Source: Escherichia phage LQ5 | Sequence record: OR677401 | Length of the DNA stretch: 64,000 bases | Reading direction: 5' to 3' (one strand) | Shown here: positions 1,212-61,469 of the stretch, piece by piece | How the letters are laid out: every line of letters starts with the position of its first letter | How positions within the stretch are numbered: the stretch's first letter is position 1 | Notes under the pieces: model-generated | Told to the model about the DNA's origin: nothing | The model's database searches: none | What the model saw: the letters and a program-made list of their open reading frames with translations, nothing else | Position numbers and translations under genes: made by a program

Positions 1212-1802
1212 ATGAACGGTTTATTTAACCAAACTAACACTACTAACTTTATCTTAGAGGTTAGTGACGCAGGAATGACGCAGGCATTCAAATTGAACGT
1301 ACAAGATGTAACACTACCGGGTATCCATATTCCGGTCTCAGACGTCCCAGGATCGACCCAGGGCATACATCGTGCTAAGCTGCCAGGTTCTACTGTAGAA
1401 TTCGACCCATTGATTGTGAACTTTCTTGTGGACCGTGAATTGAAATCGTGGCTTGACGTTTATAAGTGGATGTTGTCATTAAACAACTATGTAACCCATG
1501 ATTCAGAAGCCTGGCATCCTAAAGGTCAACCGGAAGCTATCACCCTCCACATCCTTGATAACAACAAACAGAAAATCGTAATGAGCATTCATTACTACGG
1601 CGGTTGGCCATCCGACCTCTCGGAAATCCAGTACTCTTATAAAGAGGATTCTGACCCGGCGATTATCGCCACAGCAACATTCAACTTCAAATCGTTTGCT
1701 GTAGAAATAGATGGTACAATAGTTACAGGTCGTCCACAAATTGATTCGTATGCCGAACAACGAGTGGCTCGTATGTCTATGCATCCATCTATGAGAAAAT
1801 AA
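1212..1802 (+). CDS. tail completion/sheath stabiliser gp3-like (synteny only)
   Basis: 196-aa ORF immediately upstream of gp1 homolog, stop overlaps gp1 start; true start may be internal Met (MTQAFK). Confidence 0.45.
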   Translation: MNGLFNQTNTTNFILEVSDAGMTQAFKLNVQDVTLPGIHIPVSDVPGSTQGIHRAKLPGSTVEFDPLIVNFLVDRELKSWLDVYKWMLSLNNYVTHDSEAWHPKGQPEAITLHILDNNKQKIVMSIHYYGGWPSDLSEIQYSYKEDSDPAIIATATFNFKSFAVEIDGTIVTGRPQIDSYAEQRVARMSMHPSMRK

Positions 1803-2555
1803 TGAAACTAATATCAATTGTAGGAATCAAACGTAGCGGTAAGGATACCGTTGCTAACTATGTAATCGAAAATATGGATTCGGTAAAATTTCAGCTCGCA
1901 GGTCCTATTAAAAAGTATCTGGCTGAAGCCTATGAATACATCTCTGATGACCCTGTATTCGACCGTAGTTACATGCCTAAACTAGATTTTAACTGTTTTG
2001 AAGGTATCGGTTACGACCGTGAAGAAATCATTCCTTTAAAACCATATGATGTGATTGATATCTTTGAAAATGCTATTGTCAAACTGAATAATATCCTTCC
2101 TATTCCAGGAATGGATGTTCGTACCGCATATCATTATGGTCTTACCCCAGTCCAGTATCTGTCTGAAGAAACAAAAGACCAACTGTTTGAAGTAATAAAT
2201 AAAAATAACAATTGGTCAGTACGTCGTCTCATGCAGACCCTTGGGACTGATATTATTGTTAACCAATTTGATAAGATGTATTGGGTTAAGTTGTTCGCTT
2301 TAGACTATTTTGATAAAATATACTCTGATGCGAAATACTATGTCGTACCTGATGTTCGTCAAACACACGAAATTGATTCGCTCAGAGCGATGGGTGCTAC
2401 GATTATTCATGTAGTTCGCGCTGAAACCGGTCAAGTACAAGACTCGCACATCACTGAAGCGGGTCTACCAATTTTACCTGGTGACGTTGTTGTTGAAAAT
2501 AACGGCACTCTTTCTGAACTATACACTACTATTGATAAATTATTAGGAAATAAAA

Positions 2556-2563
<8 letters not shown>
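1802..2563 (+). CDS. 1: deoxynucleoside monophosphate kinase
   Basis: N-terminal P-loop GIKRSGKDT and recalled T4 gp1 blocks (WSVRRLMQ.LGTD, MYWVKLFALDY, HITEAGLPI). Confidence 0.9.
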
Positions 2564-33315: not shown

Positions 33316-33331
33316 TGAGGAAATCGCTTAA

Positions 33332-33454: not shown

Positions 33455-33456
33455 TA

Positions 33457-34278: not shown

Positions 34279-34279
34279 T

Positions 34280-34333: not shown

Positions 34334-34337
34334 CATT

Positions 34338-34771: not shown

Positions 34772-34773
34772 CT

Positions 34774-35067
34774 ATGGGTAAAACTATTCGTCGTAAAGAA
34801 TTGTCTGTAAAAGATTTTTATTATTCCGGACGTCGTAAAGCACCGGACGGCGTAAGTCAGGAACTGGTTGAAGAAAATATCTTCCGTTCTGACAAGTGGA
34901 AACGTATGCGCGGTGTTGATTCTGAAGTTAAGAACGAAATGAACCGCCAGCTTCGTAAAGAAGTGAGAAAGCTGAAAAAAGATGTTTACAATGACGATGA
35001 ACCTGATTACAATACTTCTCATCGAGTTGCAAAACGTAAATCAAACGAGTGTTATCGTTACAGCTGA
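34774..35067 (+). CDS. hypothetical basic protein
   Basis: 97-aa ORF. Confidence 0.5.
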   Translation: MGKTIRRKELSVKDFYYSGRRKAPDGVSQELVEENIFRSDKWKRMRGVDSEVKNEMNRQLRKEVRKLKKDVYNDDEPDYNTSHRVAKRKSNECYRYS

Positions 35068-35074
35068 GGAAAAT

Positions 35075-35287
35075 ATGAATCCACAATCTTTATTGTCACA
35101 ACGTATTGCTGAAGAACGTCGTCAATTCTTTGAAAATATGAGAGCCCAAGGTATTGATGACGAACGTTTTCTAATTTGGTTTTGGGACCACAAGCACTCA
35201 AGCTGCTCCGGTGCTTTGTTACTTTCCGCTGGAATGATGTACGAAGGCTGGAAAGGTGCATTAAAATATAAATTGAAACAGCAATAA
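35075..35287 (+). CDS. hypothetical protein
   Basis: ATG 35075 after GAGGAAAA; ORF-track start 34982. Confidence 0.45.
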   Translation: MNPQSLLSQRIAEERRQFFENMRAQGIDDERFLIWFWDHKHSSCSGALLLSAGMMYEGWKGALKYKLKQQ

Positions 35288-35322
35288 TTTACAAACTCTT
35301 GGGACCAGAGTATAATGGTCCC
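35288..35322 (+). promoter_or_regulatory. sigma70-like promoter TTTACA-N17-TATAAT with inverted repeat GGGACCA/TGGTCCC around the -10
   Basis: Read directly. Confidence 0.55.
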
Positions 35323-35355
35323 ACGGATTATAAATTTTTAACTGAGGAAATTATT

Positions 35356-35685
35356 ATGTCACAAGCTATTAAAAACGTACTGAACTCTTTCGCTTTCGAT
35401 AAAGTAAACGAACTGATGAATACCGGTTTTGTGACTCCTGAAATTCTTGACCAATGGGTTGCTGAACTGCTGCCAATCATGCACTCTAAAGACCAGAAAA
35501 TTGGTAAGAACGGTATTCGTGAAATCCTGGTTCAATATATCCTTGATGAATTCGATGTCGCTGCCTTTGGTGTAGAATCTAAAGCTTGGGCCCCTGGTGA
35601 AATCACGGATAAAACCATCCGTCGTATGAAAAACCAACGTAAGAAAAAATTCGTTGACCTGAAAATTGTTAAGGCAGCGAAATGA
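35356..35685 (+). CDS. hypothetical protein
   Basis: ATG 35356; N-terminus MSQAI and leader shared with 27543 gene. Confidence 0.55.
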   Translation: MSQAIKNVLNSFAFDKVNELMNTGFVTPEILDQWVAELLPIMHSKDQKIGKNGIREILVQYILDEFDVAAFGVESKAWAPGEITDKTIRRMKNQRKKKFVDLKIVKAAK

Positions 35686-35948
35686 TTAAAATAAAACTCT
35701 CTAATTACGATAAAAACTTGGAAATGATTGCTATGAAAGAAGAACTCTTGAATGATGTCCACTTTACAGGTTATGCAGTTCAATTTAATGGTGATGGGAC
35801 TCTCCAGATTGAGGGTGACCACTTTATCATCGAATACGAATTTAAACAGTATTGGCTGTATGCAAAAGATGAGGTTGGCGGTGTTGATTACGTCGACGAG
35901 TTCGATAACCTAGATGATGCCTTGGAAGGAGCTCGATTCCTACAATGA
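35682..35948 (+). CDS. hypothetical acidic protein
   Basis: 88-aa coupled ORF. Confidence 0.5.
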   Translation: MIKIKLSNYDKNLEMIAMKEELLNDVHFTGYAVQFNGDGTLQIEGDHFIIEYEFKQYWLYAKDEVGGVDYVDEFDNLDDALEGARFLQ

Positions 35949-36208
35949 AACCCATATCCACCACCCTCGCCTACGAAGGTCTCGGATTTTTCTTAATAGA
36001 TAACTGTATGGATGTTGAGTTTGTTTGTGGTGAGACTTCTTTAGTATGGAAGTCTCATATTTCCAAATACAACCATCGTGAATATCCAAGTCTTTTTAAA
36101 GAATTTTGTGGATATATGTCTGAACATGGATGTACTGATACAATTTCTTATTCCGAGTTCACACAAATCCTTGAAACCGTATTTCAGGCTTATTGCTTAC
36201 TCCGTTGA
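35945..36208 (+). CDS. hypothetical protein
   Basis: 87-aa coupled ORF. Confidence 0.5.
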   Translation: MKPISTTLAYEGLGFFLIDNCMDVEFVCGETSLVWKSHISKYNHREYPSLFKEFCGYMSEHGCTDTISYSEFTQILETVFQAYCLLR

Positions 36209-36243
36209 TGCTTTAAAAGGGTCTTCAAATACTATGATATAAT
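36209..36243 (+). promoter_or_regulatory. promoter-like region upstream of gene 55 (TGATATAAT)
   Basis: Extended -10 TGATATAAT with box resembling the conserved cassette. Confidence 0.4.
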
Positions 36244-36274
36244 AGACCTATGATTTGAGTTATCTGAGGTAACA

Positions 36275-36832
36275 ATGACCGAAATTAAACTGACTAAAAA
36301 TAACTATGTAAATAATAAGGAGCTTCTGAAAGCTATCACCCAATGGAAAACAGAACTCAGAGAAAATACCGATCCTAATAAAATAGTTCGCCAGAACGAC
36401 GTTATCGGCTTGGCTATTATGCTCATTGCTGAAGGACTAAGTAAACGTTTCAACTTCTCAGGATATACCCAATCTTGGAAGCAAGAAATGATTGCTGATG
36501 GAATCGAAGCTTCGATTAAAGGTCTTCACAACTTCGACGAAACAAAATACGACAACCCACATGCATATATCACTATGGCTTGTTTTAATGCCTTCGTTCA
36601 GCGTATCAAAAAAGAACGTAAAGAAATGGCAAAGAAATATAGCTACTTCGTCCATAATGTCTATGACAGTAATGATGACGACATGGTAGGTATTGCAGAT
36701 GAAACCTTTATCCAAGATATCTACGACAAAATGACTCAGTATGAAACCTCTTTAACTAAAGCACCAGGGTCTGATAAGAGTGCCGAACCTAAAGTTGGTG
36801 AATTGGATTTTTTATATGGAACATCAGATTAA
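36275..36832 (+). CDS. 55: late-transcription sigma factor gp55
   Basis: 185 aa, very strong match to recalled T4 gp55 ([51 protein letters not shown]). Confidence 0.95.
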
Positions 36833-37815: not shown

Positions 37816-38670
37816 ATGAAATACATTACATACCTGACAATATATTCCGGGACTAAGCTTCCACCGTTTTATATAGGGTCCACTACTTTAGAGAAGCATT
37901 TAAAAGGATACCATGGGAGCGTCCTTTCTAAAGCATATAAAGAAATCTATAACAAGGAGCTTTTAGAGCATCCTGAATTATTTGACTCATGTATTGTAAG
38001 TGAACACCCTACAAGAGAAGAGGCTTTAGAAGCTGAAAGAATGTACCAGTTAAGAACCGATGCGGCCCAAAATCCTCTATTCTTTAATATGGCTGTCGCA
38101 GCTCCTAAAGGATTCTTTGGGCTTTCGCTACCTAAAGAGCAACACCCTCTTTACGGCTCTCATAATGCTAAAGGATATATTCATTCCTATAATCCTGTTA
38201 CATTAGAACAAACCTTTGCACCTACAGTCCCCGAAGGATACGTAGAAGGTCGTTCTCCTAATTATAAAGCGTCTAGTCATAATAAGGGTAAGAAGTGGTA
38301 TAACAATGGCGTTGATAAAGGATTATTTGTAGAAGGAAAACAACCTGAATCTTGGGTCCTTGGCAGTTTTCTAACCGATGAACATAAGAAAAACTTGAAA
38401 AAGACCGATGGGATATATGACCCTGATATTCAAAAAGAATTAAAAGAGCTTTGGATTTCTACTGGATTTTTGCCACCGTATAAATTTAGAGAAATAGCTT
38501 TAGCTAAAGGTTTTATGGATGGTAATTATCACAATTTGGTTTATAAAATTTTTAAGCCTACAGTTACAATTACTAGACCTAAGAAAATCTGGGCTAATGA
38601 CGGCATAAAAAGCTTTATGATTTCTGAGATAGAATTTAATAGTGAAATACATTATAAAGGTAGATTATGA
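37816..38670 (+). CDS. GIY-YIG homing endonuclease (Seg-like), free-standing
   Basis: N-terminal YITYLTIYSGTKLPPFYIGST motif; Lys-rich C-terminal half. Confidence 0.7.
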   Translation: MKYITYLTIYSGTKLPPFYIGSTTLEKHLKGYHGSVLSKAYKEIYNKELLEHPELFDSCIVSEHPTREEALEAERMYQLRTDAAQNPLFFNMAVAAPKGFFGLSLPKEQHPLYGSHNAKGYIHSYNPVTLEQTFAPTVPEGYVEGRSPNYKASSHNKGKKWYNNGVDKGLFVEGKQPESWVLGSFLTDEHKKNLKKTDGIYDPDIQKELKELWISTGFLPPYKFREIALAKGFMDGNYHNLVYKIFKPTVTITRPKKIWANDGIKSFMISEIEFNSEIHYKGRL

Positions 38671-39689
38671 AAATTTTGAATATAGGTGATTTGCATATCG
38701 GAGTAAAAGCCGATGACCCTTGGATTCAGGAAATCCAGCTTAACGGTATTAAACAGGCTGTAGAATATTCTAAAGCAAACAATATTGATACATGGATTCA
38801 ATATGGTGATTGGTTCGATGTACGCAAGGCTATCACCCATAAATGTATGGAATTTAATCGCGGTCTGGTGGAAATTATCAGCGATGCAGGTATTAAAGTC
38901 CATGTTATAATTGGTAACCATGATGCAACGTTTAAAAATAGCATAACTCCTAATGCGGTTTCTGAACTTCTTACTCAGTATGAAAATTTTACTGTTTACG
39001 AGAAACCTACTACGGTTAACTTTGATGGCACCGAAATTGATTTGATTCCATGGATGTGTGAAGAAAACACGACCGATATCATGGACCATATCAAAAATAC
39101 CACAGCAGATTTCTGTATAGGTCACTGGGAATTAAATGGTTTCTATTTCTATAAAGGAATGAAATCTCATGGTTTAGAACCTGATTTCCTTAAGAAGTAT
39201 AAGCAAGTATGGTCTGGCCACTTCCACACCATTTCTGATGCGGCAAACGTTAAGTATATTGGTACGCCCTGGACCCTAACTGCGGGTGATGAGAACGACC
39301 CTCGTGGCTTCTGGATTTTCGATACAGAAACCCATAAAATGGATTTCATCATCAATGAAACTTGTTGGCACCGTAAGATTCATTACCCGAATGCGACTAT
39401 CGATTACAAAGATTTTACAAATATTGCGGTTCGTGTTATAGTCGATAAAATTGATGACGGGCTTACTAAGTTCGAATCAGAGCTTGAAAAGGTTGTCCAC
39501 TCTTTGCGTATTGTGTCTAAGGTAGATAACAGTGTTGATATCGATGATTCTGAAGAGGAAGATGAAGTTAAGTCCCTCTTGGATATGATGTATGATTATA
39601 TCGATGCCCTCCCTGATGGCCACACTGAAGACGATGTTAAAGCCCTTAAGACTATGGCCGCACAACTTTATAATGAGGTTACACGATGA
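38667..39689 (+). CDS. 47: recombination endonuclease subunit gp47 (Mre11/SbcD-like)
   Basis: 340 aa; strong match to recalled T4 gp47 (GDLHIGVKADD, IQYGDWFDVRKAITHK, GHWELNGFYFYKGMKSHGLEPDFLK). Confidence 0.92.
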   Translation: MKILNIGDLHIGVKADDPWIQEIQLNGIKQAVEYSKANNIDTWIQYGDWFDVRKAITHKCMEFNRGLVEIISDAGIKVHVIIGNHDATFKNSITPNAVSELLTQYENFTVYEKPTTVNFDGTEIDLIPWMCEENTTDIMDHIKNTTADFCIGHWELNGFYFYKGMKSHGLEPDFLKKYKQVWSGHFHTISDAANVKYIGTPWTLTAGDENDPRGFWIFDTETHKMDFIINETCWHRKIHYPNATIDYKDFTNIAVRVIVDKIDDGLTKFESELEKVVHSLRIVSKVDNSVDIDDSEEEDEVKSLLDMMYDYIDALPDGHTEDDVKALKTMAAQLYNEVTR

Positions 39690-39949
39690 CTTTAGATGAA
39701 TTCAAAAAATCAGGCCTTGAACTAGAACACGACTGCATCGTTATTGATGACGATAACCAAACGAATATCATTAAGTTCTGGTTTGAAGCCGTGAGCACTC
39801 GCGATACCAACGAGCTTATTAAAGTTTATGTTGCTACTGATTGGGCTGTGGAATTTAGCTTTAATGTAATGGTAGATGATACTCCAGAAACATTAATTCA
39901 TATGGCTGAATCATGCATCAAGGATGCTTATAATGATGAAAATGTATAA
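39686..39949 (+). CDS. hypothetical acidic protein
   Basis: 87-aa coupled ORF between 47 and 46. Confidence 0.55.
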   Translation: MTLDEFKKSGLELEHDCIVIDDDNQTNIIKFWFEAVSTRDTNELIKVYVATDWAVEFSFNVMVDDTPETLIHMAESCIKDAYNDENV

Positions 39950-40148
39950 ACATGATTTTCATATTGGCGATGGCTGGTTCGGTAATGTAGAATGGGACGT
40001 GGATGGTTCTTGGTATACCGGAACTATGTATGTCACTTCTGAATATTCTGAAGGTGTTTCATGGGCCATGGAACTTGACGACGTGTTTGCTTCTTCCGAA
40101 GAAATGCTAGAATATGCTGAACAAACAATTCGTGAGAACAATACATGA
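39924..40148 (+). CDS. hypothetical acidic protein
   Basis: 74-aa ORF; start uncertain. Confidence 0.4.
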   Translation: MLIMMKMYKHDFHIGDGWFGNVEWDVDGSWYTGTMYVTSEYSEGVSWAMELDDVFASSEEMLEYAEQTIRENNT

Positions 40149-41827
40149 AGACTTTTAAGTTAAAGAAAGTAACGTATAAAAATATTATGTCGGTAGGCCA
40201 GCAACCTATTACAATCCAACTTGACAAGGTCCAAAAGACCTTAGTCACCGGTAAAAATGGTGCTGGGAAATCTACGTTCCTTGAAGCCGTTACATTTGCT
40301 CTGTTCGGTAAGCCTTTTCGTGATGTTAAGAAAGGGCAGTTGATTAACTCAAGTAATAAGAAAGACCTTTTGGTCGAACTGTGGATGGAATATGATGGCA
40401 AAGAATACTACATCAAACGTGGGCAAAAACCGAACGTTTTTGAAATCTCTTGTGGCGGTGAACGTCTTGATGAATCTGCCAGCAGTAAAGACTTCCAAGC
40501 AGAATTTGAACAGCTTATCGGAATGTCCTATGCAAGCTTCAAACAGATTGTCGTACTTGGTACAGCAGGGTATACCCCTTTCATGGGTTTGTCGACCCCT
40601 GCGCGCCGAAAGCTTGTGGAAGACCTCTTAGAGGTTTCTGTATTAGCGGATATGGATAAGTTGAACAAATCTTTGATTCGCGAGACTAATAGCCAAATCC
40701 AAGTAATAGACGTTAAGCAGGATTCTATTACCCAACAGATTAAAATTTATAATGACAACGAAGAACGTCAACGTAAATTATCCGGCGAGAACGCAGCAAG
40801 ACTACAAGTAATGTATGACGAGCTCGTTAAAGAAGCCAGGACTGCGAAGGGCCATATAGAAAAACTAACTGATGAATTACTCAATGTCATTGTCGACGAT
40901 GACCCTAGCAACTCCATGAGTGACCTGAGCAATAAAGGGTTTGCAATCAAGAATGATATGGCAACCTTTACTAAGGTCGTGAAATTATACGAAACCGGTG
41001 GTAGTTGTCCTACATGTATGCAAGGATTGGAAGAGCATGGAAATATCCTTACTAAAATTAAGGATAAGAACTTTGAGCTTCAAAAATCTTTGGATAAGAT
41101 TAACGAGCAATACCAAGAGCTCAAACTTATTAAAGACCAAGTAACTGAGCAACGTAATAAAGCGCTGGCTATTAAATCTCAGATAGCTACTCATAAGCAA
41201 CAAGCTGTTACTGCTGTAGAGAAAGCTAAAAAGGTTAAAGTATTAATCGACCAAGCCGCTGCTGAGTTCGTAAGTAATGCCGAAGAGATTGCAGCGCTTC
41301 AAGCAGAGCTTGATAAAATCGTCTCTACCAAATCGTCCTTGGTAATGGAAAAATACCATCGTGGAATTCTGACAGAAATGTTGAAGGATACAGGTATTAA
41401 AGGTTCCATTATTAAGAAATACATTCCTATCTTTAATAAGCAGATAAATTCTTATTTGAAGATTATGGAAGCCGACTACGTCTTTACACTAGACGAAGAG
41501 TTCAATGAGACGATTAAATCACGTGGGCGTGAAGACTTTAGTTATGCTTCATTTTCACAGGGTGAGAAAGCACGTATTGATATCGCACTACTTTTTACAT
41601 GGCGTGATATTGCTTCTAAGGTATCAGGTGTTAATATCAGCACGTTAATTCTTGATGAGGTATTTGACAGTGCTACTGACGCTGAAGGCGTTAAGACCAT
41701 TGCAACCATCTTGAATAGCCTTGAGGATACGAACGTGTTCATTATCTCTCACCGAGACCATGACCCACAAGCATATGGCCAACATCTTCAAATGAAGAAA
41801 GTTGGACGATTCACGGTGTTGGAATGA
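40145..41827 (+). CDS. 46: recombination endonuclease subunit gp46 (Rad50/SbcC-like ATPase)
   Basis: 560 aa; Walker A GKNGAGKST, coiled-coil middle, signature/Walker B near C-terminus. Confidence 0.92.
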   Translation: MKTFKLKKVTYKNIMSVGQQPITIQLDKVQKTLVTGKNGAGKSTFLEAVTFALFGKPFRDVKKGQLINSSNKKDLLVELWMEYDGKEYYIKRGQKPNVFEISCGGERLDESASSKDFQAEFEQLIGMSYASFKQIVVLGTAGYTPFMGLSTPARRKLVEDLLEVSVLADMDKLNKSLIRETNSQIQVIDVKQDSITQQIKIYNDNEERQRKLSGENAARLQVMYDELVKEARTAKGHIEKLTDELLNVIVDDDPSNSMSDLSNKGFAIKNDMATFTKVVKLYETGGSCPTCMQGLEEHGNILTKIKDKNFELQKSLDKINEQYQELKLIKDQVTEQRNKALAIKSQIATHKQQAVTAVEKAKKVKVLIDQAAAEFVSNAEEIAALQAELDKIVSTKSSLVMEKYHRGILTEMLKDTGIKGSIIKKYIPIFNKQINSYLKIMEADYVFTLDEEFNETIKSRGREDFSYASFSQGEKARIDIALLFTWRDIASKVSGVNISTLILDEVFDSATDAEGVKTIATILNSLEDTNVFIISHRDHDPQAYGQHLQMKKVGRFTVLE

Positions 41828-42015
41828 GTGATTTTATAACAGGCCAGCATTTGTTGGCCGTTCCTGAACTAAAGCGGTATGTTTTAGTTAATAACTTCTC
41901 TGGAGACGAACATCTTGTTACTGAAGATTATCTCCGAAATGCTTTTACGACAGAGTATGATAAAATCATGTCGAACAGGAACCCTGCCTGGTTCGTTTAT
42001 GAATACTTTGATTAA
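41824..42015 (+). CDS. hypothetical protein
   Basis: 63-aa coupled ORF. Confidence 0.5.
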   Translation: MSDFITGQHLLAVPELKRYVLVNNFSGDEHLVTEDYLRNAFTTEYDKIMSNRNPAWFVYEYFD

Positions 42016-42077
42016 ACGTTAAGTGCTTTAAAATATTGATTTATAATACATCTACCAACCAAATGAGAGAAAATATT

Positions 42078-42491
42078 ATGTTTGCTAACGCTATTACTGT
42101 TAAAGATATCCAAGTTAAAACCATTCGTACCGATTCCAACCCGCACAATCAAAATCGTATTCGTAAATCATGGGTACTGAATATTGATACCAACTCTGCA
42201 CGTCGTCTGCAGTCTCTTCCACAAGAAACTAAGTTCATGCTCTACGGTATCATTGATAACGACGTATCTGATAAGTGGGTAGAAATCATGCGTCGTCATT
42301 ATAACGATTCGCTGGCCGCAGGTGCTAAACTGGTTATCGACCGTGATGGTTCTGAACGTCTCGAAGATGATTATTGCGTAGATTTTGACGAACAGTTGCT
42401 TGAAGCCGGTGCTATTGTTGCTTCCCAGATTCCAGAGTATATTGAATCTCTGCCTGAATCCATTCGTAAACAAATGATCGTTATTGCTTAA
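42078..42491 (+). CDS. rpbA: RNA polymerase binding protein RpbA-like
   Basis: 137 aa directly upstream of gene 45 as in T4; ATG 42078 after GAGAGAAAA. Confidence 0.55.
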   Translation: MFANAITVKDIQVKTIRTDSNPHNQNRIRKSWVLNIDTNSARRLQSLPQETKFMLYGIIDNDVSDKWVEIMRRHYNDSLAAGAKLVIDRDGSERLEDDYCVDFDEQLLEAGAIVASQIPEYIESLPESIRKQMIVIA

Positions 42492-48544: not shown

Positions 48545-48781
48545 ATGGAAGCTTTAATCGTTAGTGCTGGTGTTTTAGGATTCGGTTCTCTGGTTATTAT
48601 GTTCATCGGTTACTTTTTACCATGGATTCTGGCTCTTCTGCGAGGCACTCGTAGTAATGTCGGAATTTTCTTCCTTAATCTCCTGTTAGGCTGGACGATG
48701 ATTGGTTGGGTAGTGGCTTTAATCTGGGCTATCGTCGCTGAACGTAAATCAAACGCACAAATCATTATTGTTAAGCAATGA
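48545..48781 (+). CDS. imm: superinfection immunity protein Imm-like
   Basis: 78-aa two-TM protein with LLGWTMIGWVVALIWA motif; position after gene 43. Confidence 0.7.
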   Translation: MEALIVSAGVLGFGSLVIMFIGYFLPWILALLRGTRSNVGIFFLNLLLGWTMIGWVVALIWAIVAERKSNAQIIIVKQ

Positions 48782-48915
48782 AAATAATTATTTTATTTCT
48801 TATAATGACTGCCTTTACCATTTATTGGGCAGTGGCAATTCCGCCAATGATTCCGACACTAATCATCGGATGGATTATTCTTATAGCACAAATTAAGTAT
48901 AACTGTTTTAATTGA
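48778..48915 (+). CDS. small hydrophobic peptide (45 aa)
   Basis: ATG overlaps imm stop; below ORF-track cutoff. Confidence 0.45.
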   Translation: MKIIILFLIMTAFTIYWAVAIPPMIPTLIIGWIILIAQIKYNCFN

Positions 48916-48922: not shown

Positions 48923-49423
48923 ATGAAAAAGTTAATTATCGCAATGAGTATGCTCCTATCAGGTTGTGCGGTCCAATATGGTGATGCAGTTTCGGCTGAT
49001 GAAGTTGGTAAAGCTCGTATCGCAGCTGAACAGAAACAATTCGATGGCGAAATGAAATTCCGTGCAGGTTCTGGACTTGTGTACACCCGAGCCAATAATC
49101 AATGTGGTAATAACTGTGCAAAATATGCTCAAAGGGAAATCGAATTCCAACGTGAACAAGAGTCTAAGCGTGAAGCGGTACTAGCCAAACACCAGGCAGA
49201 AATGAAGCGTCAAGATGATTTGTACAAAAAGCAGAAACTGTATGCGATGTGCGTAAACCATATCAATCTACAGATTTCCATCCACGAGGCTCGTTATTAC
49301 GAAATGCTCGAAACCGAGAGCTTCGGTAAAGCTCGTGATTATAAGAAACAAATCGATAAGCTCAAGACCAAAGCACCGGCGGCAATAAAACAGTGTATTG
49401 AAATCGGTAAAGATAAGATTTAA
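48923..49423 (+). CDS. lipoprotein
   Basis: Signal peptide with lipobox LLSGC; 166 aa. Confidence 0.6.
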   Translation: MKKLIIAMSMLLSGCAVQYGDAVSADEVGKARIAAEQKQFDGEMKFRAGSGLVYTRANNQCGNNCAKYAQREIEFQREQESKREAVLAKHQAEMKRQDDLYKKQKLYAMCVNHINLQISIHEARYYEMLETESFGKARDYKKQIDKLKTKAPAAIKQCIEIGKDKI

Positions 49424-49439: not shown

Positions 49440-49470
49440 AAAAATAGTGTATAATGTACCTACATTCACT
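49440..49470 (+). promoter_or_regulatory. promoter (TGTATAAT) overlapping palindrome AATGTA-cc-TACATT
   Basis: Read directly upstream of the sugar-activation operon. Confidence 0.45.
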
Positions 49471-49483
49471 TGAGGAACAGATA

Positions 49484-51157
49484 ATGAAAAAGGTTGTTAT
49501 TTTAGGCGCGGGTCTTGGCTCACGGTTGTATCCAATTACCAACGAAATCCCGAAGGTACTGGTTAACTACAAACAACATACTGTATTAAAACATTTGTAT
49601 GATTTGTATAGTAATCAATCAGATGAAATTATTCTGGTTATTCACAGCAAATTTAACGACCTCGTTAAAGGCTATATTAAATCCATTAACATGATTAATA
49701 GTGATAAGCCCAAATTCACTATTCGTAACGTTGATGTTGCCAATGGTTCGGCTCATGCTATCGATTGCATTGCCGAAGATATCATTGGGCACAATGTCTT
49801 GTTTAACTGGTGTGATATTATTCCTGAAGGTCATAAAGTTGAGTGGGATAACGACTACTGTTATACCTATGGGACTGACTGTCGTTTTACATTTGAAGAA
49901 CCGTACTTGCGTGAAATTGGTACCGGTGGTGGTGTGGTTGGTTTGTATCAGGTTGCTAATTGGACAGGCTTCAACCGTTCTAATTATGGCGAAGACCTTG
50001 CTGATAACCTGGATTCGATGGTCCATTTGACCGAACGTAAGCTGGACTTTGTAGTTGATGTCGGTGACAAATTGAAACTGGCTAAGGCCCATGAAGATTC
50101 TGAAATTAACCGTGAATTTAATAAATTAGAGTTCACTGAGAATCTAGCTATTAAAGTACCTACAAACGAATTAGGTAAAGAAATCCAATCTAAAGAAATC
50201 AATTGGTACAATTCTATTGATTCTGAATTCGTTCCTAGCATTGTAGACTTTGCTCCAGGTGAATTCATTAAAATGGAACGTATCTTTGGTCGAACCATGG
50301 CAGATGCCTACCGGTTTATGTCTAAAGAAACTAAAGTCCTAATGGTTTATAAGGTTATTAGTGCATTACGTTCGTTCGGTGGAACTATCGATAATCCGTC
50401 CGATGAGCAATGGTATTCTGATGTTAAGAAAGAAGTATTGGACAAGGTCCTTATTCGTAATGCTTCTATTGCCGGATTGATTGAAGGCTTTGCTCCACAG
50501 GGTATTACCCATGTTAACGACTTCAAGGTAGGCGACCCAGAAAAACTTCTTCGTCACGCCTTAGAAATTCTGTCTGAACATAAAGAACCGTACCAACTTA
50601 TTCATGGCGACCCGCACTACAGTAATATTATGTTGTCGGACGAAGGTAATATTAAAATCATCGACCCACGTGGTTATTTTGGTAATAGTTCTAAAGGCCC
50701 TGCGATTTATGATGAAGCTAAGGTGCTTTATTCTATCGATGGTTATGACAAATTTAACTCTGACCCTCTATGGGGCGGATTAACTCGTAACGGAACTCGT
50801 GTATTCGTTGATATTGAAAAGGTTATGCCTTTAGATGATATTCCGATGTGTACATTTAAGCACAAGCTCTGGATTGCCGTTATTTGGATGGCATTGGCAG
50901 GTTACTTTAAAAATAACCCTCTGAAAGCTCTGGGCGCTTATTACAATGGGCTATATCAACTGAGTGTGCTGCTGAAGCGGCATCCTCGTAAGCGTAAGCT
51001 TATCACAGGTGAATTCGTTGATGAAGTTCGCGACCCTATCACGGCTCAAATTATCACTCGTTGTCCTGATAAGTGGGTTTTGCTTGACCAAGAAACTGGT
51101 GTAAAATATAAACCTACAGGTTCTACCGAACTCCACAAACAATGGAAGAAAATTTAA
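49484..51157 (+). CDS. bifunctional sugar-1-phosphate nucleotidyltransferase / APH-fold sugar kinase
   Basis: N-terminal ILGAGLGSRLYPIT..PKVLV; C-terminal HGDPHYSNIM ... IIDPRG kinase catalytic loop; ATG 49484. Confidence 0.7.
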   Translation: MKKVVILGAGLGSRLYPITNEIPKVLVNYKQHTVLKHLYDLYSNQSDEIILVIHSKFNDLVKGYIKSINMINSDKPKFTIRNVDVANGSAHAIDCIAEDIIGHNVLFNWCDIIPEGHKVEWDNDYCYTYGTDCRFTFEEPYLREIGTGGGVVGLYQVANWTGFNRSNYGEDLADNLDSMVHLTERKLDFVVDVGDKLKLAKAHEDSEINREFNKLEFTENLAIKVPTNELGKEIQSKEINWYNSIDSEFVPSIVDFAPGEFIKMERIFGRTMADAYRFMSKETKVLMVYKVISALRSFGGTIDNPSDEQWYSDVKKEVLDKVLIRNASIAGLIEGFAPQGITHVNDFKVGDPEKLLRHALEILSEHKEPYQLIHGDPHYSNIMLSDEGNIKIIDPRGYFGNSSKGPAIYDEAKVLYSIDGYDKFNSDPLWGGLTRNGTRVFVDIEKVMPLDDIPMCTFKHKLWIAVIWMALAGYFKNNPLKALGAYYNGLYQLSVLLKRHPRKRKLITGEFVDEVRDPITAQIITRCPDKWVLLDQETGVKYKPTGSTELHKQWKKI

Positions 51158-51516
51158 TGCATCTGTGTTTTGATATCGATAATACCATTACTCACTGGCA
51201 AGATGACCGTGATTACGAAAACTTTAAACCGGACACCGAAATGGTGTCCATGATTAATAAGCTTTATGATGAAGGGTACGAGATTACCTTGTTCACTGCC
51301 CGTGGTATGACTTCATGCGGCCCGGGTCGAATCTTGGTTGAAGTAGTTCCTGCATTAGTTAAGAACCTTGAAAAGATTGGATTGAAATATCACAATCTGC
51401 TTACACATAAGCCGAGTTATACTTTTATCATCGATGACCGAGCAATCCGTCCTGACCACTTTAAAGAAATGGTTCGTGAAGGAACTCTTGAAACCTATAA
51501 GGCATATCATCCGTGA
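51157..51516 (+). CDS. HAD-superfamily phosphatase
   Basis: DxDxT motif FDIDNTIT near N-terminus; ATG 51157 overlaps upstream TAA. Confidence 0.65.
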   Translation: MHLCFDIDNTITHWQDDRDYENFKPDTEMVSMINKLYDEGYEITLFTARGMTSCGPGRILVEVVPALVKNLEKIGLKYHNLLTHKPSYTFIIDDRAIRPDHFKEMVREGTLETYKAYHP

Positions 51517-52049
51517 AACCAAAAATCATTGTTATCGACGGCCCGGATAATTCCGGGAAGTCTACTTTAATTGAATCACTTTTATCTGATAAGAAATATC
51601 GTCTTATCGATTTCCCTAAAAAGATTAACGGCAAATGCATTTCATTAGGGACTGATAATGACAAGGCTTTAGTCGAGACGTTGTATAAGTTTTTAGACCC
51701 TAATTTTGTCTACATCTTAGACCGTGGGTATCCTAGTAATATTGTTTACTCTGGATTCCTTCGTGGTGAAATGGACCCTTATGTAGAATTAGCAGATTGG
51801 ATTGATTTCAAAAAAGAATTCAATATCATTGAGATTATTTTAACCCGTAATCCATTAGATGAAGACTTTGAAGATGACCTTATTAAATTAACCAAAGATG
51901 AGTTCAACCTAACTATCCAGCAATATGAAACATGTTTTGAAAACGTGTTTAAAATCTTAAATCACGACGGCCATAATAACTTGCTTAACGTCGATATGGT
52001 AGAATTAAAACGTCTGAATGAATATATTGAAAATAAGGTGAATAAATGA
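51513..52049 (+). CDS. P-loop nucleotide/nucleoside kinase-like protein
   Basis: Walker A IVIDGPDNSGKST; probable GTG start overlapping upstream stop. Confidence 0.55.
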   Translation: MKPKIIVIDGPDNSGKSTLIESLLSDKKYRLIDFPKKINGKCISLGTDNDKALVETLYKFLDPNFVYILDRGYPSNIVYSGFLRGEMDPYVELADWIDFKKEFNIIEIILTRNPLDEDFEDDLIKLTKDEFNLTIQQYETCFENVFKILNHDGHNNLLNVDMVELKRLNEYIENKVNK

Positions 52050-52744
52050 AACACATTACCGCTGTTAGTTTTGAAAACGCGTTTAAGCAAATGAACGAAG
52101 AAATCCTGGAAGCTCCACAGTTTGCAGTTGATTCTCGTATCGGCCGTTGTTATGAAATTGGTTCTGCTTCGGTAGAAGTACTGGATGCAAGCACCTATAA
52201 ATTCACCGACCCTCGTATTAATCGTATCAACTATGATTATGCCGAATCCTTTTGGAAGTTTATGATTTCTGGTGGTACTGACGCTGCTGAAGCATTTAAG
52301 GAATATCCTAATGTTGCTAAGTTCATTGATAAGCCGAAAAGTGACGTATTGCCTGCAAACTTCAACACTTTCTATGGACCTCGAATTGTGGCCCAACTCC
52401 CGGCCCTACTTAAAGAGCTTAAAGAGAAGCCTAACTCAAGACGAGTTGTGTTCCAAATTCTCCAAGAACAAGACCAGGCCCTCCTTGATTCTGACGAATC
52501 CTTAGAATACCCATGTACCGATTCGGTGACATATTATATTCGTGATGGACGTCTGTATGCACATACTCATATGCGTTCACAGAACTGTGCTATCGTTATG
52601 CAGCTGGATTTCTATCTGCAGGGTAAACTGATGGCCTTTATTGCTGAACAGTGTGGTGTTGGTCTGGGTACGTATTCCCATACTATGGTTAGTGCACACG
52701 TATTTGAACGTGATTTTGACTACGTTCGAGGATTCCTGAAATGA
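52046..52744 (+). CDS. 42: thymidylate-synthase-family pyrimidine hydroxymethylase (gene 42 position; divergent)
   Basis: Core PCTDSVTYYIRDGRLYAHTHMRSQN parallels recalled T4 gp42 FMCTNTVQYLIRD...NMRSND. Confidence 0.6.
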   Translation: MKHITAVSFENAFKQMNEEILEAPQFAVDSRIGRCYEIGSASVEVLDASTYKFTDPRINRINYDYAESFWKFMISGGTDAAEAFKEYPNVAKFIDKPKSDVLPANFNTFYGPRIVAQLPALLKELKEKPNSRRVVFQILQEQDQALLDSDESLEYPCTDSVTYYIRDGRLYAHTHMRSQNCAIVMQLDFYLQGKLMAFIAEQCGVGLGTYSHTMVSAHVFERDFDYVRGFLK

Positions 52745-53634
52745 GTTTGTTTATCGTTCCTATTTTCAGTATGCGTAGTTACGAAACAGGTGAATATGCC
52801 GTCCTTAAGGACGGTAATTTTCAACTCCATTTAAACCGTGCTTGCCCAGGTGATTATCTGGCTTATCCTAGAAATTCGAGCGATATCAAAGAATGCATTG
52901 AATTATTTCCTGAACTGAATTTTGTACCGCTTTGGTATAAAGAAAATGCTTATGAAACTCGTAAACATTTTTGGTCTGAAAACGAGTTCGTTGTTGATTC
53001 GTTAATCGAATACTATGACTGCTCAGGATTGGTAACCGATATCACAGGTTATGATGGCACTCAGACTGTACAATTCAACTTTAACATTACAATGGACCCT
53101 GAAGTTCCTCGTTATTATATCGACGAGTTTATTGATACCGACGTGTCCTCAGTTGAACGTTCGATTTATACCACAGTCCTGAATCAATGTCAGAAAGACG
53201 TCCTGGTGTCACGAGGTGCGTCCTCTGATAAGATTTTTGTAGACCAAAAGGTAATTAATCCGGCAGTAATTGAGCGTTACTCTGAAGGCCTAGCGCCTAT
53301 TAAAATTGATGGTATTTTCCACCCATTCCGTATTTCGGATAAGTGTTATCAATTCGAAAGAGTTGTAGACCAAGCTGCGGCTGAAGGTGCTCGTCTTTAT
53401 ATCACCGACCCGAATGATTCATTTAAGCGTGAAGACTATCGTCCTGATGTAGAGATTATTAAATTCAAACCGAGTAAGGTTGAATATTATCAGATTCTGA
53501 AATCAAGACCTCATATCATTTATCATGAGAATCCCGGTTTAGTATTCCATCCTGGTCTGGCTGAATTCATTTATTTCGGTGCCCATATCCATTCTGAGCA
53601 CGAAATGCCAAGTTATGAGGACGTGGTCCTTTAA
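52741..53634 (+). CDS. uncharacterised protein in the beta-glucosyltransferase position; putative DNA sugar transferase
   Basis: 297 aa, coupled to hydroxymethylase; no similarity to recalled T4 beta-gt. Confidence 0.5.
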   Translation: MSLFIVPIFSMRSYETGEYAVLKDGNFQLHLNRACPGDYLAYPRNSSDIKECIELFPELNFVPLWYKENAYETRKHFWSENEFVVDSLIEYYDCSGLVTDITGYDGTQTVQFNFNITMDPEVPRYYIDEFIDTDVSSVERSIYTTVLNQCQKDVLVSRGASSDKIFVDQKVINPAVIERYSEGLAPIKIDGIFHPFRISDKCYQFERVVDQAAAEGARLYITDPNDSFKREDYRPDVEIIKFKPSKVEYYQILKSRPHIIYHENPGLVFHPGLAEFIYFGAHIHSEHEMPSYEDVVL

Positions 53635-53711: not shown

Positions 53712-54884
53712 ATGTCTGATTTAAAATCCCGTTTGATTAAAGCTTCTACTTCTAAAATGACTGCCGACCTGACCAAATCTAAATTGTTTAATGGTCGTGA
53801 CGAAGTTCCTACTCGTATCCCTATGCTGAATATTGCATTAGGCGGTGCGTTGAATGCAGGCTTACAATCAGGTTTGACAATCTTTGCTGCTCCATCTAAA
53901 CACTTTAAAACGTTGTTTGGACTTACCATGGTTGCGGCATATATGAAGAAATATCCAGACGCAATTTGTTTGTTCTACGACTCTGAGTTTGGTGCTTCAG
54001 AATCTTATTTCCGTTCGATGGGTGTTGATTTAGAACGTGTGGTTCATACACCAATCCAGTCAGTCGAACAGCTTAAAGTTGATATGACCAACCAATTAGA
54101 AGAAATTACTCGTGGCGAAAAGGTTATTATCTTTATCGACTCTATCGGTAACACTGCTTCTAAGAAAGAAACCGAAGATGCTTTGAACGAGAAAGTTGTA
54201 GGTGATATGACTCGTGCTAAATCACTGAAATCTCTGTTCCGTATCGTAACACCTTATCTGACCATCAAAGATATCCCTTGTGTAGCAATTAACCATACGG
54301 CTATGGAAATTGGTGGAATGTACCCTAAAGAGATTATGGGTGGTGGTACTGGTATTCTGTACTCTGCTTCTACCGTGTTCTTTATCTCTAAACGTCAGGT
54401 TAAAGATGGTACTGAGCTCACTGGTTATGACTTCACACTGAAGGCCGAGAAATCTCGTACGGTTAAAGAGAAATCAACGTTCCCGATTACAGTGAACTTC
54501 GAAGGTGGTATCGACCCATTCAGTGGATTGCTTGAAATGGCTACTGATATCGGCTTTGTCGTGAAACCTAAAGCTGGTTGGTATAATCGTGCATTCCTTG
54601 ACGAAACCACAGGTGAAATGGTTCAAGAAGAAAAAGCATGGCGTGCTAAAGCTACCGATTGTGTCGAGTTCTGGGGACCGCTGTTTAAACATGCCCCGTT
54701 CCGTGAAGCAATCGAGAATAAGTATAAGCTCGGTGCAATTAATTCTATTAAAGAAGTTGACGATGCAGTGAACGACCTTATTAACTCTCGTGTCTCTAAG
54801 AACGTTGCTGTTAAATTAGGTGGTAATGCCCAAAGCGCCGCTGATATCGAAAACGATTTAGAAGAGATGGATTTAGATGACTGA
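53712..54884 (+). CDS. uvsX: recombinase UvsX (RecA-like)
   Basis: 390 aa, strong match to recalled T4 UvsX (MSDLKSRLIKASTSK, GEKVIIFIDSIGN, MGGGTG). Confidence 0.95.
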   Translation: MSDLKSRLIKASTSKMTADLTKSKLFNGRDEVPTRIPMLNIALGGALNAGLQSGLTIFAAPSKHFKTLFGLTMVAAYMKKYPDAICLFYDSEFGASESYFRSMGVDLERVVHTPIQSVEQLKVDMTNQLEEITRGEKVIIFIDSIGNTASKKETEDALNEKVVGDMTRAKSLKSLFRIVTPYLTIKDIPCVAINHTAMEIGGMYPKEIMGGGTGILYSASTVFFISKRQVKDGTELTGYDFTLKAEKSRTVKEKSTFPITVNFEGGIDPFSGLLEMATDIGFVVKPKAGWYNRAFLDETTGEMVQEEKAWRAKATDCVEFWGPLFKHAPFREAIENKYKLGAINSIKEVDDAVNDLINSRVSKNVAVKLGGNAQSAADIENDLEEMDLDD

Positions 54885-60286: not shown

Positions 60287-60943
60287 ATGAATTACGAAAA
60301 AATATACCAGGAATTAATATCTAAAGGAAAATTAAGAGGTTCTAAGCGGTCTTTATCATATTATACGGAAGAACACCATGTTATACCTAGATGTATGAAT
60401 GGTTCTGATGATAAAAACAATTTAGTTGCTTTATTGCCAAGAGAACACTTTGTAGCTCATAGGCTTTTAACAAAAATATATCCCGAAGTAAAAGGTCTAC
60501 ATTATGCTGTTAATTTAATGAGATATAATAAAGGAGTTAAATTAACTAGTAGAACTATAGCCACGTTAAGAGAAAATAACGCTAAAGCATTTTCAGGAAA
60601 AAATAACCCGATGTTTGGTAAACCTTCCTGGATTAGAGGGATGAAAACTCCTGAAGAAACTAAAGCCAAAATGCGCCTGGCTCATAAAGATAAAATTATA
60701 TCTGATGAAGCCAAGGCCAATATGAGTAAAGCTAGAAAAGGAAGATTTAGTGGTAAAGATTCCCCTAGATATGGTTTACCGAATCCTAGGCGTGGAGAAA
60801 TATGGAATAGTTACGATATGCTTTACGAATTATGGGTTTACAATAATAAACCTAAACGCACCAAATTTAATAAAATAGCTGTTGATAATGGATATCCTGA
60901 TATTTGTTATCGACGAATGATAGAAAACTTTAATAGGAAATAA
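60287..60943 (+). CDS. HNH homing endonuclease (Mob-like), free-standing
   Basis: YTEEHHVIPRCMNGSDDKNNLVALLPREHFVAH; paralog of 479-1129. Confidence 0.8.
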   Translation: MNYEKIYQELISKGKLRGSKRSLSYYTEEHHVIPRCMNGSDDKNNLVALLPREHFVAHRLLTKIYPEVKGLHYAVNLMRYNKGVKLTSRTIATLRENNAKAFSGKNNPMFGKPSWIRGMKTPEETKAKMRLAHKDKIISDEAKANMSKARKGRFSGKDSPRYGLPNPRRGEIWNSYDMLYELWVYNNKPKRTKFNKIAVDNGYPDICYRRMIENFNRK

Positions 60944-60947: not shown

Positions 60948-61469
60948 ATGGCATTTTTTAACGAATGTAGTGGTTTGATTTCTGGTGTTGATAAAGCTGA
61001 GGAAGCTTATTTTAATGCTCTGATTCATGAAGATAAAGACCCTCTGCAGGTTATGCTTGATATGCAGAAATCATTACAGGTCCGTTTGGCTACTGAAAAA
61101 TCTGAATTTAACTCTAACCCCGATGAACTGGCTACTGCAGGTCAAGTTGTCGATTGGCTTCGCAACCAGAAAGATTATATTGATGACGAATTCCGTGAAC
61201 TGTTGACTTCTCTTGGTGGCATGAGCAATGGCGAAAAAGATGCATCTGCAGTATGGAAGCCTTGGAAAGCTCAACATGCTGAACGTCGTGAAACCCTGAT
61301 TAACGATTTGTCTCCTGAAGACCAGCTCGAAATTAAATTCGAAATGATTGATATTCTGCACTTTGTTCTGAATATGTTCCAAGGTCTTGGACTGACTGCT
61401 GAAGAAATCTTTAAACTGTATTACCTGAAAAATGCCGAGAACTTTGCTCGCCAGGACCGAGGTTATTAA
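60948..61469 (+). CDS. 56: dCTPase/dUTPase gp56
   Basis: 173 aa, strong match to recalled T4 gp56 (DPLQVMLDMQ, DDEFRELLTSLG, SPEDQLEIKFE, EEIFKLYYLKN). Confidence 0.92.
   Translation: MAFFNECSGLISGVDKAEEAYFNALIHEDKDPLQVMLDMQKSLQVRLATEKSEFNSNPDELATAGQVVDWLRNQKDYIDDEFRELLTSLGGMSNGEKDASAVWKPWKAQHAERRETLINDLSPEDQLEIKFEMIDILHFVLNMFQGLGLTAEEIFKLYYLKNAENFARQDRGY

Follow-up and report, generated by a model that had tools for sequence, protein, structure and literature searches.

A Reduced Gene Cluster for the Predicted Arabinosylation of 5-Hydroxycytosine in the Dhakavirus Phage LQ5

Introduction

The replacement of cytosine in phage DNA by an arabinosylated 5-hydroxycytosine is a known pathway, its chemistry and enzymology having been published in 2025-2026 for RB69, HY126, DLP3 and other phages, and Lee et al. 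(NAR 2026; PMC13326640) list the Dhakaviruses among the genera with a syntenic cluster. Here we describe that cluster in Escherichia phage LQ5 (sequence record OR677401), from which a stretch of 64,000 nucleotides, referred to below as the window, was analysed. The window derives from the genus Dhakavirus, JS98-like relatives of T4, and the genes in question lie between positions 49454 and 53634. We consider it very probable that these genes encode, in a Dhakavirus form, the arabinosyl-5-hydroxycytosine pathway of RB69, HY126, DLP3 and Thanatos; all functional statements for LQ5 rest on homology, the individual steps having been shown in orthologues. What is new is the reduced state of the cluster, which has no phage isomerase, no gene of the U32 family and no second transferase, and the divergence of its fusion enzyme.

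The best described systems are those of the Mosigviruses RB69 and HY126 (RB69 gp45 to gp55 plus gp3; the Afh proteins of HY126). RB69 gp48, like DLP3 gp80, converts deoxycytidine monophosphate (dCMP) to 5-hydroxy-dCMP; the RB69 enzyme carries a bound flavin and takes its oxygen from O2, as judged by 18O2 incorporation, and an asparagine at position 169 of thymidylate synthase (ThyA numbering) marks the same activity in nine further homologues, all D169N homologues tested having yielded 5-hydroxy-dC (PMC13326640). The RB69 gp1 orthologue gp159 phosphorylates 5-hydroxy-dCMP (PMC13326640). For the sugar branch, the work of He et al., as summarised by Lee et al., has AfhE of HY126 phosphorylating arabinose-5-phosphate at C1 and later converting arabinose-1-phosphate to uridine diphosphate (UDP)-arabinose, and AfhF stripping the 5-phosphate (PMC13326640). 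The bases of RB69 are mono- and di-arabinosylated. Acinetobacter phages DLP3 and DLP1 (Lazarusvirus, gp76 to gp83) have the same core genes, and DLP3 adds an isomerase of its own (gp83) and two extra GT-B transferases (gp76/77), its DNA bearing tri-arabinosyl-5-hydroxycytosine (PMC13326640). The DNA of Shewanella phage Thanatos (TH1_060 to TH1_065) is reported to be mono-arabinosylated (PMC13326640), and its fusion orthologue is essential for propagation (PMC12838424).

Two more distant systems frame the comparison. In Rhizobium phage RL38JI (Pootjesviridae) a D169N hydroxylase stands beside a thymidylate-kinase-like kinase and a first transferase, and the product is a hexosyl-5-hydroxycytosine with galactose and glucose, made with a UDP-galactopyranose mutase and no sugar activation of the AfhE/AfhF type (PMC13326640). 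T4 itself uses hydroxymethyl and folate chemistry through gene 42 and takes its sugar from host UDP-glucose through a-gt and b-gt, whereas for the Dhakaviruses we predict a hydroxyl group introduced with flavin and O2, and a sugar made by the phage and attached by an enzyme with no sequence similarity to a-gt or b-gt. For these phages themselves, Petrov et al. (2010) raised the question of the role of a ‘gene 42’ in JS98-type phages in the absence of glucosyltransferases, and Thomas et al. (2018) pointed out that IME08 gp43 is homologous to the fusion protein over its full length.

Results and Discussion

Five Coupled Genes Between imm and uvsX

Five open reading frames (ORFs) on the plus strand occupy positions 49454-53634 without gaps, in the interval leading from imm to uvsX. 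They encode a fusion enzyme of the AfhE type (49484..51157, listed as an ORF from 49454; 557 residues), a small HAD phosphatase of predicted AfhF type (51142..51516; 124 residues, or 119 if the start lies at 51157), a P-loop, thymidylate-kinase-like nucleotide kinase (51513..52049; 178 residues, GTG start), a protein of the thymidylate synthase fold predicted to be a dCMP 5-hydroxylase, that is a 5-hydroxy-dCMP synthase (52046..52744; 232 residues), and a predicted glycosyltransferase of the GT-B fold (52741..53634; 297 residues). The first two genes overlap by 16 nucleotides (start 51142) or by the single nucleotide of a TAATG (start 51157), the remaining junctions being GTGA at 51513, ATGA at 52046 and ATGA at 52741; stop and start codons overlap at every junction, and translation is coupled across all five genes.

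Orthologues of all five are found in RB69 and HY126 in the same pol-uvsX interval, with identities to RB69 of 79% for the hydroxylase, 66% for transferase 1, 62% for the HAD protein, 42% for the fusion enzyme and 38% for the kinase. An earlier interpretation drawn from the letters of the window without database searches (the sequence-only reading) had described five genes with overlapping codons in this interval, had named a nucleotidyltransferase joined to an APH-type kinase, a HAD protein, a P-loop kinase and a member of the thymidylate synthase family, and had seen in them an RB69-type module for pyrimidine modification and the activation of a sugar other than glucose. The ORF coordinates and junctions, the domain searches and the RB69 orthologues bear out these three points; the chemistry that it assigned to the modified base is a different matter.

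A Predicted Hydroxylase in Place of a Hydroxymethylase

The product of 52046..52744 matches the Pfam family Thymidylat_synt (4.8e-14). Its closest solved relatives are PDB 9iqu, 9iqc and 9ir2 (E = 1.5e-125, 79% identity), and it is 78-79% identical to RB69 gp48, to which the 9iqu sequence is itself 98.7% identical; the identity to T4 gp42 is 25.6%, with PDB 1b49, the T4 dCMP hydroxymethylase, retrieved at E = 4.7e-6. From the label ‘phage HY126 glycosyltransferase’ carried by PDB 9iqz, a member of the 9iqu series, we infer that these entries stem from the structural work of He et al. on HY126.

Signature residues were read in ThyA numbering from a MAFFT alignment with E. coli ThyA, T4 gp42, td of QL01 (a 98%-identical phage), RB69 gp48 and 9iqu. 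The LQ5 protein shows L143E, D169N (RSQN, residues 177-180), N177D (QLD, residues 186-188), W80A and G173V and retains the catalytic cysteine (residue 157 in EYPC, equivalent to ThyA C146), and RB69 gp48 and 9iqu agree with it at positions 80, 143, 146, 169, 173 and 177. L143E and N177D are common to T4 gp42, which, like the phage’s own td, retains W80, D169 and G173; the LQ5 protein thus departs from a T4-type dCMP hydroxymethylase at these three positions, with N169, A80 and V173. Together these features argue for a flavin- and O2-dependent dCMP 5-hydroxylase, not a hydroxymethylase, with the binding of flavin and the use of O2 expected from the 79% identity to the RB69/HY126 enzyme.

The sequence-only reading had instead taken this gene for a hydroxymethylase, which, as a folate-dependent enzyme like T4 gp42, would give DNA with hydroxymethylcytosine bearing a non-glucose sugar, namely arabinosyl-hydroxymethylcytosine. 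The thymidylate synthase fold recognised by Pfam and the conserved catalytic cysteine would suit such an enzyme, as would the two substitutions shared with gp42; arabinosyl-hydroxymethylcytosine was also what the original RB69 report proposed (PMC6024577), and older comparative papers ascribe a gene 42 to JS98-type phages (PMC2993671). We nevertheless regard this as very improbable, given 25.6% identity to gp42 as opposed to 79% to a solved hydroxylase, three substitutions (D169N, W80A and G173V) that set the protein apart from ThyA and gp42 alike, and the formation of 5-hydroxy-dC by D169N homologues. The RB69 precedent cited for it has meanwhile changed, the base in RB69 DNA having been re-determined as arabinosyl-5-hydroxycytosine by nuclear magnetic resonance and mass spectrometry (PMC13326640; PMC13390438). 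In the records of relatives the hydroxylase is named either ‘thymidylate synthase’ or ‘dCMP hydroxymethylase’.

The Predicted Transferase and Its Fold

The 297-residue product of 52741..53634 returned no sequence match in Pfam, NCBIfam or PDB. RB69 gp47 plus gp46, in fact a single gene, share 66% identity with it, and the orthologues of DLP1 and Thanatos about 50%; matches to Rhizobium phages are weak (25% identity). A structure model built from 51 homologues (pLDDT 95.2, pTM 0.90) finds the same top structural match, with the same score, as Lee et al. report for RB69 gp46:47, and its structural neighbours are enzymes of lipopolysaccharide (LPS) and cell-wall synthesis. Because the PDB sequence search gave nothing, the GT-B fold is drawn from this model, which indicates a glycosyltransferase, in keeping with the transferase fold that the sequence-only reading required. 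Sequence similarity points to an orthologue of RB69 gp46:47, DLP3 gp79 and Thanatos TH1_063 (‘arabinosyltransferase 1’), and by analogy the protein is predicted to attach to the 5-hydroxyl of 5-hydroxycytosine a first arabinose that, in this phage, would also be the only one. A hidden Markov model (HMM) search for paralogues over six-frame ORFs returned the gene itself only. The records of C6, IME341, vB_EcoM_005 and SHP1 give the transferase as ‘RNA polymerase binding protein’.

Predicted Sugar Activation and the Nucleotide Kinase

Pfam recognises two domains in the fusion enzyme, NTP_transferase (PF00483, 2.5e-8) and APH (PF01636, 9e-6), and the whole belongs to phrog_4098 (5.8e-269). The motifs of both halves are intact: GLGSRL at residues 10-15 (GxGxR) in the N-terminal nucleotidyltransferase, and HGDPHYSN at 374-381 (HxDxxxxN) and IID at 392-394 in the C-terminal APH-fold kinase. 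Over its full length it is 42% identical to RB69 gp53:52 and 44% identical to both the DLP1 protein and Thanatos TH1_060 (E<=1e-140), rising to 80% for the counterpart in Klebsiella phage kv_tblp2. By analogy with AfhE it is predicted to convert D-arabinose-5-phosphate to arabinose-1,5-bisphosphate, and arabinose-1-phosphate plus UTP to UDP-arabinofuranose. The ‘anomeric sugar kinase’ of the sequence-only reading holds as far as the sugar pathway goes and needs amending in its substrate, the characterised orthologue acting on arabinose 5-phosphate, after which the HAD enzyme strips the 5-phosphate.

Bacterial homologues of the fusion enzyme are joined to HAD domains and to SIS domains resembling the arabinose-5-phosphate isomerase GutQ. 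A LicA/LicC-like choline kinase/cytidylyltransferase, suggested by the best PDB sequence match (1jyk), was rejected on the strength of these HAD- and SIS-fused homologues and of the reported activity of the orthologue; the same sugar-phosphate domains speak for the view, already implicit in the sequence-only reading, that the fusion is no choline or aminoglycoside kinase. In three bacterial metagenome proteins of 922-946 residues (P0185, P0191 and P0210) the HAD, SIS, nucleotidyltransferase and kinase regions form one polypeptide, so that the whole arabinose-activation route would lie within one protein. These four-domain fusions hint at a use of nucleoside diphosphate-arabinose in bacteria beyond phage DNA modification.

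The HAD protein finds PDB 9iqw at E = 2.8e-53 and 1xpj at E = 2.8e-12, carries motif I as DIDNT at residues 11-15 (DxDxT), and is assigned to phrog_1238, with a weak Pfam HAD match and a match to the capsule phosphatase family TIGR01689 (1.6e-14) that lies below the family cut-off. It is 62% identical to RB69 gp51 and 84% identical to the orthologue of Klebsiella phage kv_tblp2. Following AfhF, its predicted reaction is that of arabinose-1,5-bisphosphate to arabinose-1-phosphate. In relatives’ records it appears as ‘phosphoheptose isomerase’.

Such names, together with ‘capsule biosynthesis phosphatase’ in RefSeq and PHROG, the sub-threshold TIGR01689 match and the LPS and cell-wall enzymes among the structural neighbours of the transferase, would allow the sugar genes to be read as auxiliary genes for the host envelope (capsule, LPS or heptose) that happen to stand beside a gene of nucleotide metabolism, with no part in DNA modification. 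We find this barely credible, since the five genes are translationally coupled, the sugar genes accompany the hydroxylase in Mosigvirus, Lazarusvirus, Shewanella and Klebsiella phages alike, their orthologues build UDP-arabinose and arabinosylated DNA (PMC13326640), and propagation of Thanatos depends on the fusion orthologue (PMC12838424).

The 178-residue kinase belongs to phrog_761 (2.8e-40), with weak matches to P-loop families of the TMK/CMK type and to PDB 2axp/3kb2 (YorR; 0.032), and shows a Walker A motif (GPDNSGKS, residues 10-17) and DRG at residues 70-72. It is the orthologue of RB69 gp45 (38% identity), with 38-44% identity across RB69, DLP1 and Thanatos and 76% to the Klebsiella phage orthologue, and its substrate is most likely 5-hydroxy-dCMP or an arabinosylated form of it.

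Divergence of the Fusion Enzyme

The identities of the hydroxylase, the HAD protein and the transferase track the expected phage relationships, unlike those of the fusion enzyme, for which the Dhakavirus and Klebsiella-phage lineages share 42-45% with RB69, DLP1 and Thanatos, compared with 53-57% among those three. In a neighbour-joining distance tree rooted on the bacterial homologues, the Dhakavirus/Klebsiella branch falls outside the chemically verified arabinosylators in 124 of 200 bootstraps (62%), and given this level of support its position is not built upon here.

The divergence, together with the lack of an encoded isomerase, is the ground for a reading in which the base is still 5-hydroxycytosine and the sugar differs, being another pentose or one carried by CDP or GDP in place of UDP-D-arabinofuranose. 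The basal position of the fusion enzyme would fit this, set against a hydroxylase, HAD protein and transferase that are all closest to RB69, and so would the failure to find an isomerase in the QL01 genome and the excess of transferase over isomerase records among phages (356 and 276, respectively); that 5-hydroxycytosine can bear other sugars is known from RL38JI (PMC13326640). If it were true, the Dhakavirus and Klebsiella phages would carry a 5-hydroxycytosine glycoside not yet described. We think it unlikely, though less so than a hydroxymethylated base. The transferase (66%) and the HAD protein (62%) are as near to those of RB69 as are those of the arabinose users DLP1 and Thanatos, or nearer; outgroup (the bacterial SIS-domain fusions) and ingroup are both tied to arabinose-5-phosphate, which E. 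coli supplies through KdsD and GutQ; Thanatos is reported as arabinosylated (PMC13326640), and yet the 17 kb fetched around its cluster, the only part of its genome that was searched, hold no isomerase; and the basal position is recovered in only 124 of the 200 replicates. UDP-D-arabinofuranose remains the sugar donor that we favour.

Genes Absent from the Reduced Cluster

Missing genes were sought by tblastn, HMM and Pfam searches covering the window and, standing in for the rest of the LQ5 genome, the complete genome of QL01. No homologue of T4 a-gt or b-gt was detected by tblastn in the window, as the sequence-only reading had stated, or in the whole of QL01. Likewise, tblastn gave no match in either for the RB69 arabinose-5-phosphate isomerase gp55, and the SIS-type isomerase that the sequence-only reading proposed to look for elsewhere in the genome is absent from QL01; nor was there a match for the U32 protein gp50, for gp49 or for the second transferase gp3 of RB69. 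The slot between rIIA and gene 39 of QL01 holds two small ORFs only. Among ten larger unassigned ORFs of the window, Pfam showed no glycosyltransferase domain; several are homing endonucleases or contain domains of unknown function, and three (284, 336 and 280 residues) match no Pfam family. Of the records in the phage collection, 356 contain the transferase and only 276 the isomerase, and the isomerase is absent from the Thanatos and Klebsiella loci that were fetched, so that it can be regarded as an optional feature of the cluster.

By contrast with those missing, alc, denA, denB, gp56 and gp1 were all found in the window or in QL01. Two of them, which would support a full replacement of cytosine, lie in the window, as the sequence-only reading had noted, outside the cluster and accessory to it. 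These are the gp56 dCTPase/dUTPase (60948..61469, plus strand), which is 86% identical to RB69 gp56 and maps to QL01 gp027 (‘gp56 dCTPase’), and the gp1 dNMP kinase (1802..2563, plus strand), which maps to QL01 gp145 (‘deoxynucleoside monophosphate kinase’).

The U32 protein deserves separate mention. The ‘peptidase’ of the RB69-type cluster is a member of Peptidase_U32 (Pfam 7.4e-11) and is absent from the window. Within the cluster it shows the highest conservation, with 79-86% identity among RB69 (gp50, 6837-8006 in the fetched locus), Thanatos (TH1_065, 9462-10598) and Klebsiella phage kv_tblp2 (4907-6067), and is missing in Dhakavirus and DLP1. Among the members of the U32 family are hydroxylases that work without O2, namely RlhA, which forms 5-hydroxycytidine in 23S rRNA, TrhP and UbiU/V. 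Compared with such hydroxylases the phage protein gives a single weak match, to UbiU (E = 9e-4), and it could serve as a back-up for the O2-dependent hydroxylase, forming 5-hydroxycytosine under anaerobic conditions. The label given to it by Lee et al. goes no further than ‘sugar or heterocycle reductase’ (PMC13326640).

In T4 the anaerobic ribonucleotide reductase genes nrdD and nrdG presumably occupy the stretch from gene 55 to the slot of gene 49. Judged by annotation and ORF sizes only, neither is annotated anywhere in QL01 (corresponding region 38000-42100), and the window has no large ORF in this stretch (33300-36300). The lack of nrdD/nrdG and of the U32 gene suggests a phage without oxygen-independent versions of these steps.

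Comparison with Related Clusters

LQ5 and RB69 share the signature residues of the hydroxylase and the support genes gp56 and gp1, and differ in that the Dhakavirus cluster is without the isomerase gp55, the U32 protein gp50, gp49 and the second transferase gp3. The kinase gene precedes that of the hydroxylase in Dhakavirus and follows that of the transferase in RB69, and a mono-arabinosyl base is expected where RB69 has both mono- and di-arabinosyl forms.

The nearest relative of the sugar genes is Klebsiella phage kv_tblp2 (PQ819475), with 80% identity for the fusion enzyme, 84% for the HAD protein, 76% for the kinase and 85% for the hydroxylase. Its genes run in the order fusion, HAD, kinase, U32, small ORF, hydroxylase and transferase, with no isomerase in the locus, as in Dhakavirus; the U32 gene and the small gp49-like gene that it keeps between kinase and hydroxylase have both been lost from Dhakavirus. 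Thanatos resembles Dhakavirus in having one transferase of the family and no isomerase in the locus; its fusion enzyme is of the RB69 type (54% to RB69), its U32 gene is kept (79% to RB69 gp50) and its HAD protein is longer (196 residues). With its reportedly mono-arabinosylated DNA, Thanatos offers the best precedent for the product predicted in Dhakavirus. The Acinetobacter phages have the same five core genes at 39-71% identity, with gp78 of DLP3 as the kinase in the cluster, and are also without the U32 gene.

Proposed Pathway

In the pathway that we propose, gp56 would hydrolyse dCTP to dCMP and so remove dCTP, allowing the modified base to replace cytosine fully. The hydroxylase, using flavin and O2 and not methylene-tetrahydrofolate, would then convert dCMP to 5-hydroxy-dCMP, which gp1 and/or the 178-residue kinase, together with host Ndk, would raise to the triphosphate for insertion by the phage polymerase instead of dC. 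Since the phage encodes no isomerase, D-arabinose-5-phosphate would be drawn from host KdsD and GutQ, that is from the precursor pool of 3-deoxy-D-manno-oct-2-ulosonic acid (Kdo), both enzymes being the means by which E. coli itself makes this compound (also PMC6024577). The kinase half of the fusion enzyme would phosphorylate it at C1 to the 1,5-bisphosphate, the HAD enzyme would remove the 5-phosphate to leave arabinose-1-phosphate, and the nucleotidyltransferase half would form UDP-arabinofuranose, from which the GT-B transferase would link arabinose, by a glycosidic bond of ether type, with the 5-hydroxyl. Because a single transferase is encoded, the product would be the mono-arabinosyl form of 5-O-arabinosyl-5-hydroxycytosine; the gene content thus predicts mono-arabinosylation fed by host KdsD and GutQ. 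The modification would shield the DNA from restriction and from nucleases of clustered regularly interspaced short palindromic repeat (CRISPR) systems, and would serve as a self/non-self mark for the cytosine-specific functions of the phage (denA, denB and alc).

Several points weigh against this pathway and are best considered together. Single DLP3 transferases failed to arabinosylate 5-hydroxycytosine-containing DNA in vitro (PMC13326640), and the Thanatos orthologue TH1_063 was reported to form UDP-xylose from UTP and xylose-1-phosphate in vitro (PMC12838424), so that the exact reaction of the transferase-1 family, and its acceptor (DNA or nucleotide), may not be those proposed. The divergence of the fusion enzyme, with its 42-45% identity and basal branch, means that its substrate could differ, and a divergent second transferase beyond the reach of tblastn, HMM and Pfam may exist. 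Without a phage isomerase, the host supply of arabinose-5-phosphate may limit modification, the demand being, by a rough estimate, of the same order as the flux into Kdo. Finally, no DNA chemistry for any Dhakavirus was found in the searchable literature.

Gene Starts, Flanks and Mobile Elements

The 4.2-kb cluster region shares 95-98% nucleotide identity with QL01, WG01, Bp7, MX01, IME08 and some 45 further records. For the fusion gene, a start at 49484 is likelier than one at 49454: a Shine-Dalgarno sequence, GAGGA, stands at 49472-49476, 7 nucleotides upstream of the former, the upstream ATG falls within a TATAAT at 49450-49455, alignments to PHROG 4098 and RB69 open at residue 11, which is the second methionine, and the RefSeq record of QL01 has its start at the equivalent of 49484. 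The HAD gene may likewise begin at the alternative start 51157, in the TAATG overlap, where GGAAG lies 9 nucleotides upstream and which yields the 119-residue version annotated in QL01. A scan of the cluster for promoters and terminators did no better than on shuffled sequence, the TATAAT at 49450-49455 being the sole transcription signal noted. At 0.392 for the cluster and 0.390 for the window, the guanine-cytosine content gives no hint of a recent import.

Upstream of the cluster the order is DNA polymerase, imm (48545-48781), a 45-residue ORF and a 166-residue ORF, and downstream follow uvsX (53712-54884), 40 and 41; the same slot in T4 reads imm, 42, b-gt, segA, uvsX. The 45-residue ORF (48778-48915) is hydrophobic and 58% identical to RB69 ORF054, and the 166-residue protein (48923-49423; phrog_1754) has a lipoprotein-type signal (MKKLIIAMSMLLSGC). 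A role in the modification pathway is not obvious for either of these two genes between imm and the cluster.

The window is collinear with QL01 throughout, at 95-99% identity, the exceptions being a few differences of the size of homing endonucleases. ORFs of homing-endonuclease type (MobB-like HNH/NUMOD3 and GIY-YIG) lie at 479-1129, 5288-5953, 37816-38670 and 60287-60943 and cause most of these differences, the copy at 60287-60943, adjoining gp56, being absent from QL01. A 357-residue ORF at 32242-33315 with an N-terminal GIY-YIG domain of the SegE type (Pfam 5e-34) stands at the gene 49 (endonuclease VII) slot of QL01, IME08 and KIT01; QL01 gp49 has no tblastn match within the 64-kb window, and PSD9, E33, ABTNLS3, FB and Bp7 show the same arrangement as the window at this slot.

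Implications for Dhakavirus Biology

The public annotation of this cluster, in some 50 Dhakavirus genomes, is misleading, with the genes entered as ‘hypothetical’, ‘thymidylate synthase’ or ‘thymidylate kinase’, and the present analysis re-annotates the five genes across these genomes. It also answers, by inference, the question of Petrov et al. (2010) concerning JS98. For a genus that is used in therapy and biocontrol, it predicts the chemistry of the DNA and with it the escape from, or triggering of, restriction, CRISPR and type IV systems, as well as the behaviour of the DNA in sequencing and cloning. As a minimal cluster, lacking an isomerase and relying on a single transferase, the Dhakavirus version would be a simple system in which to examine what transferase 1 acts on, what the extra kinase does, and how the modification depends on host arabinose-5-phosphate and on oxygen.

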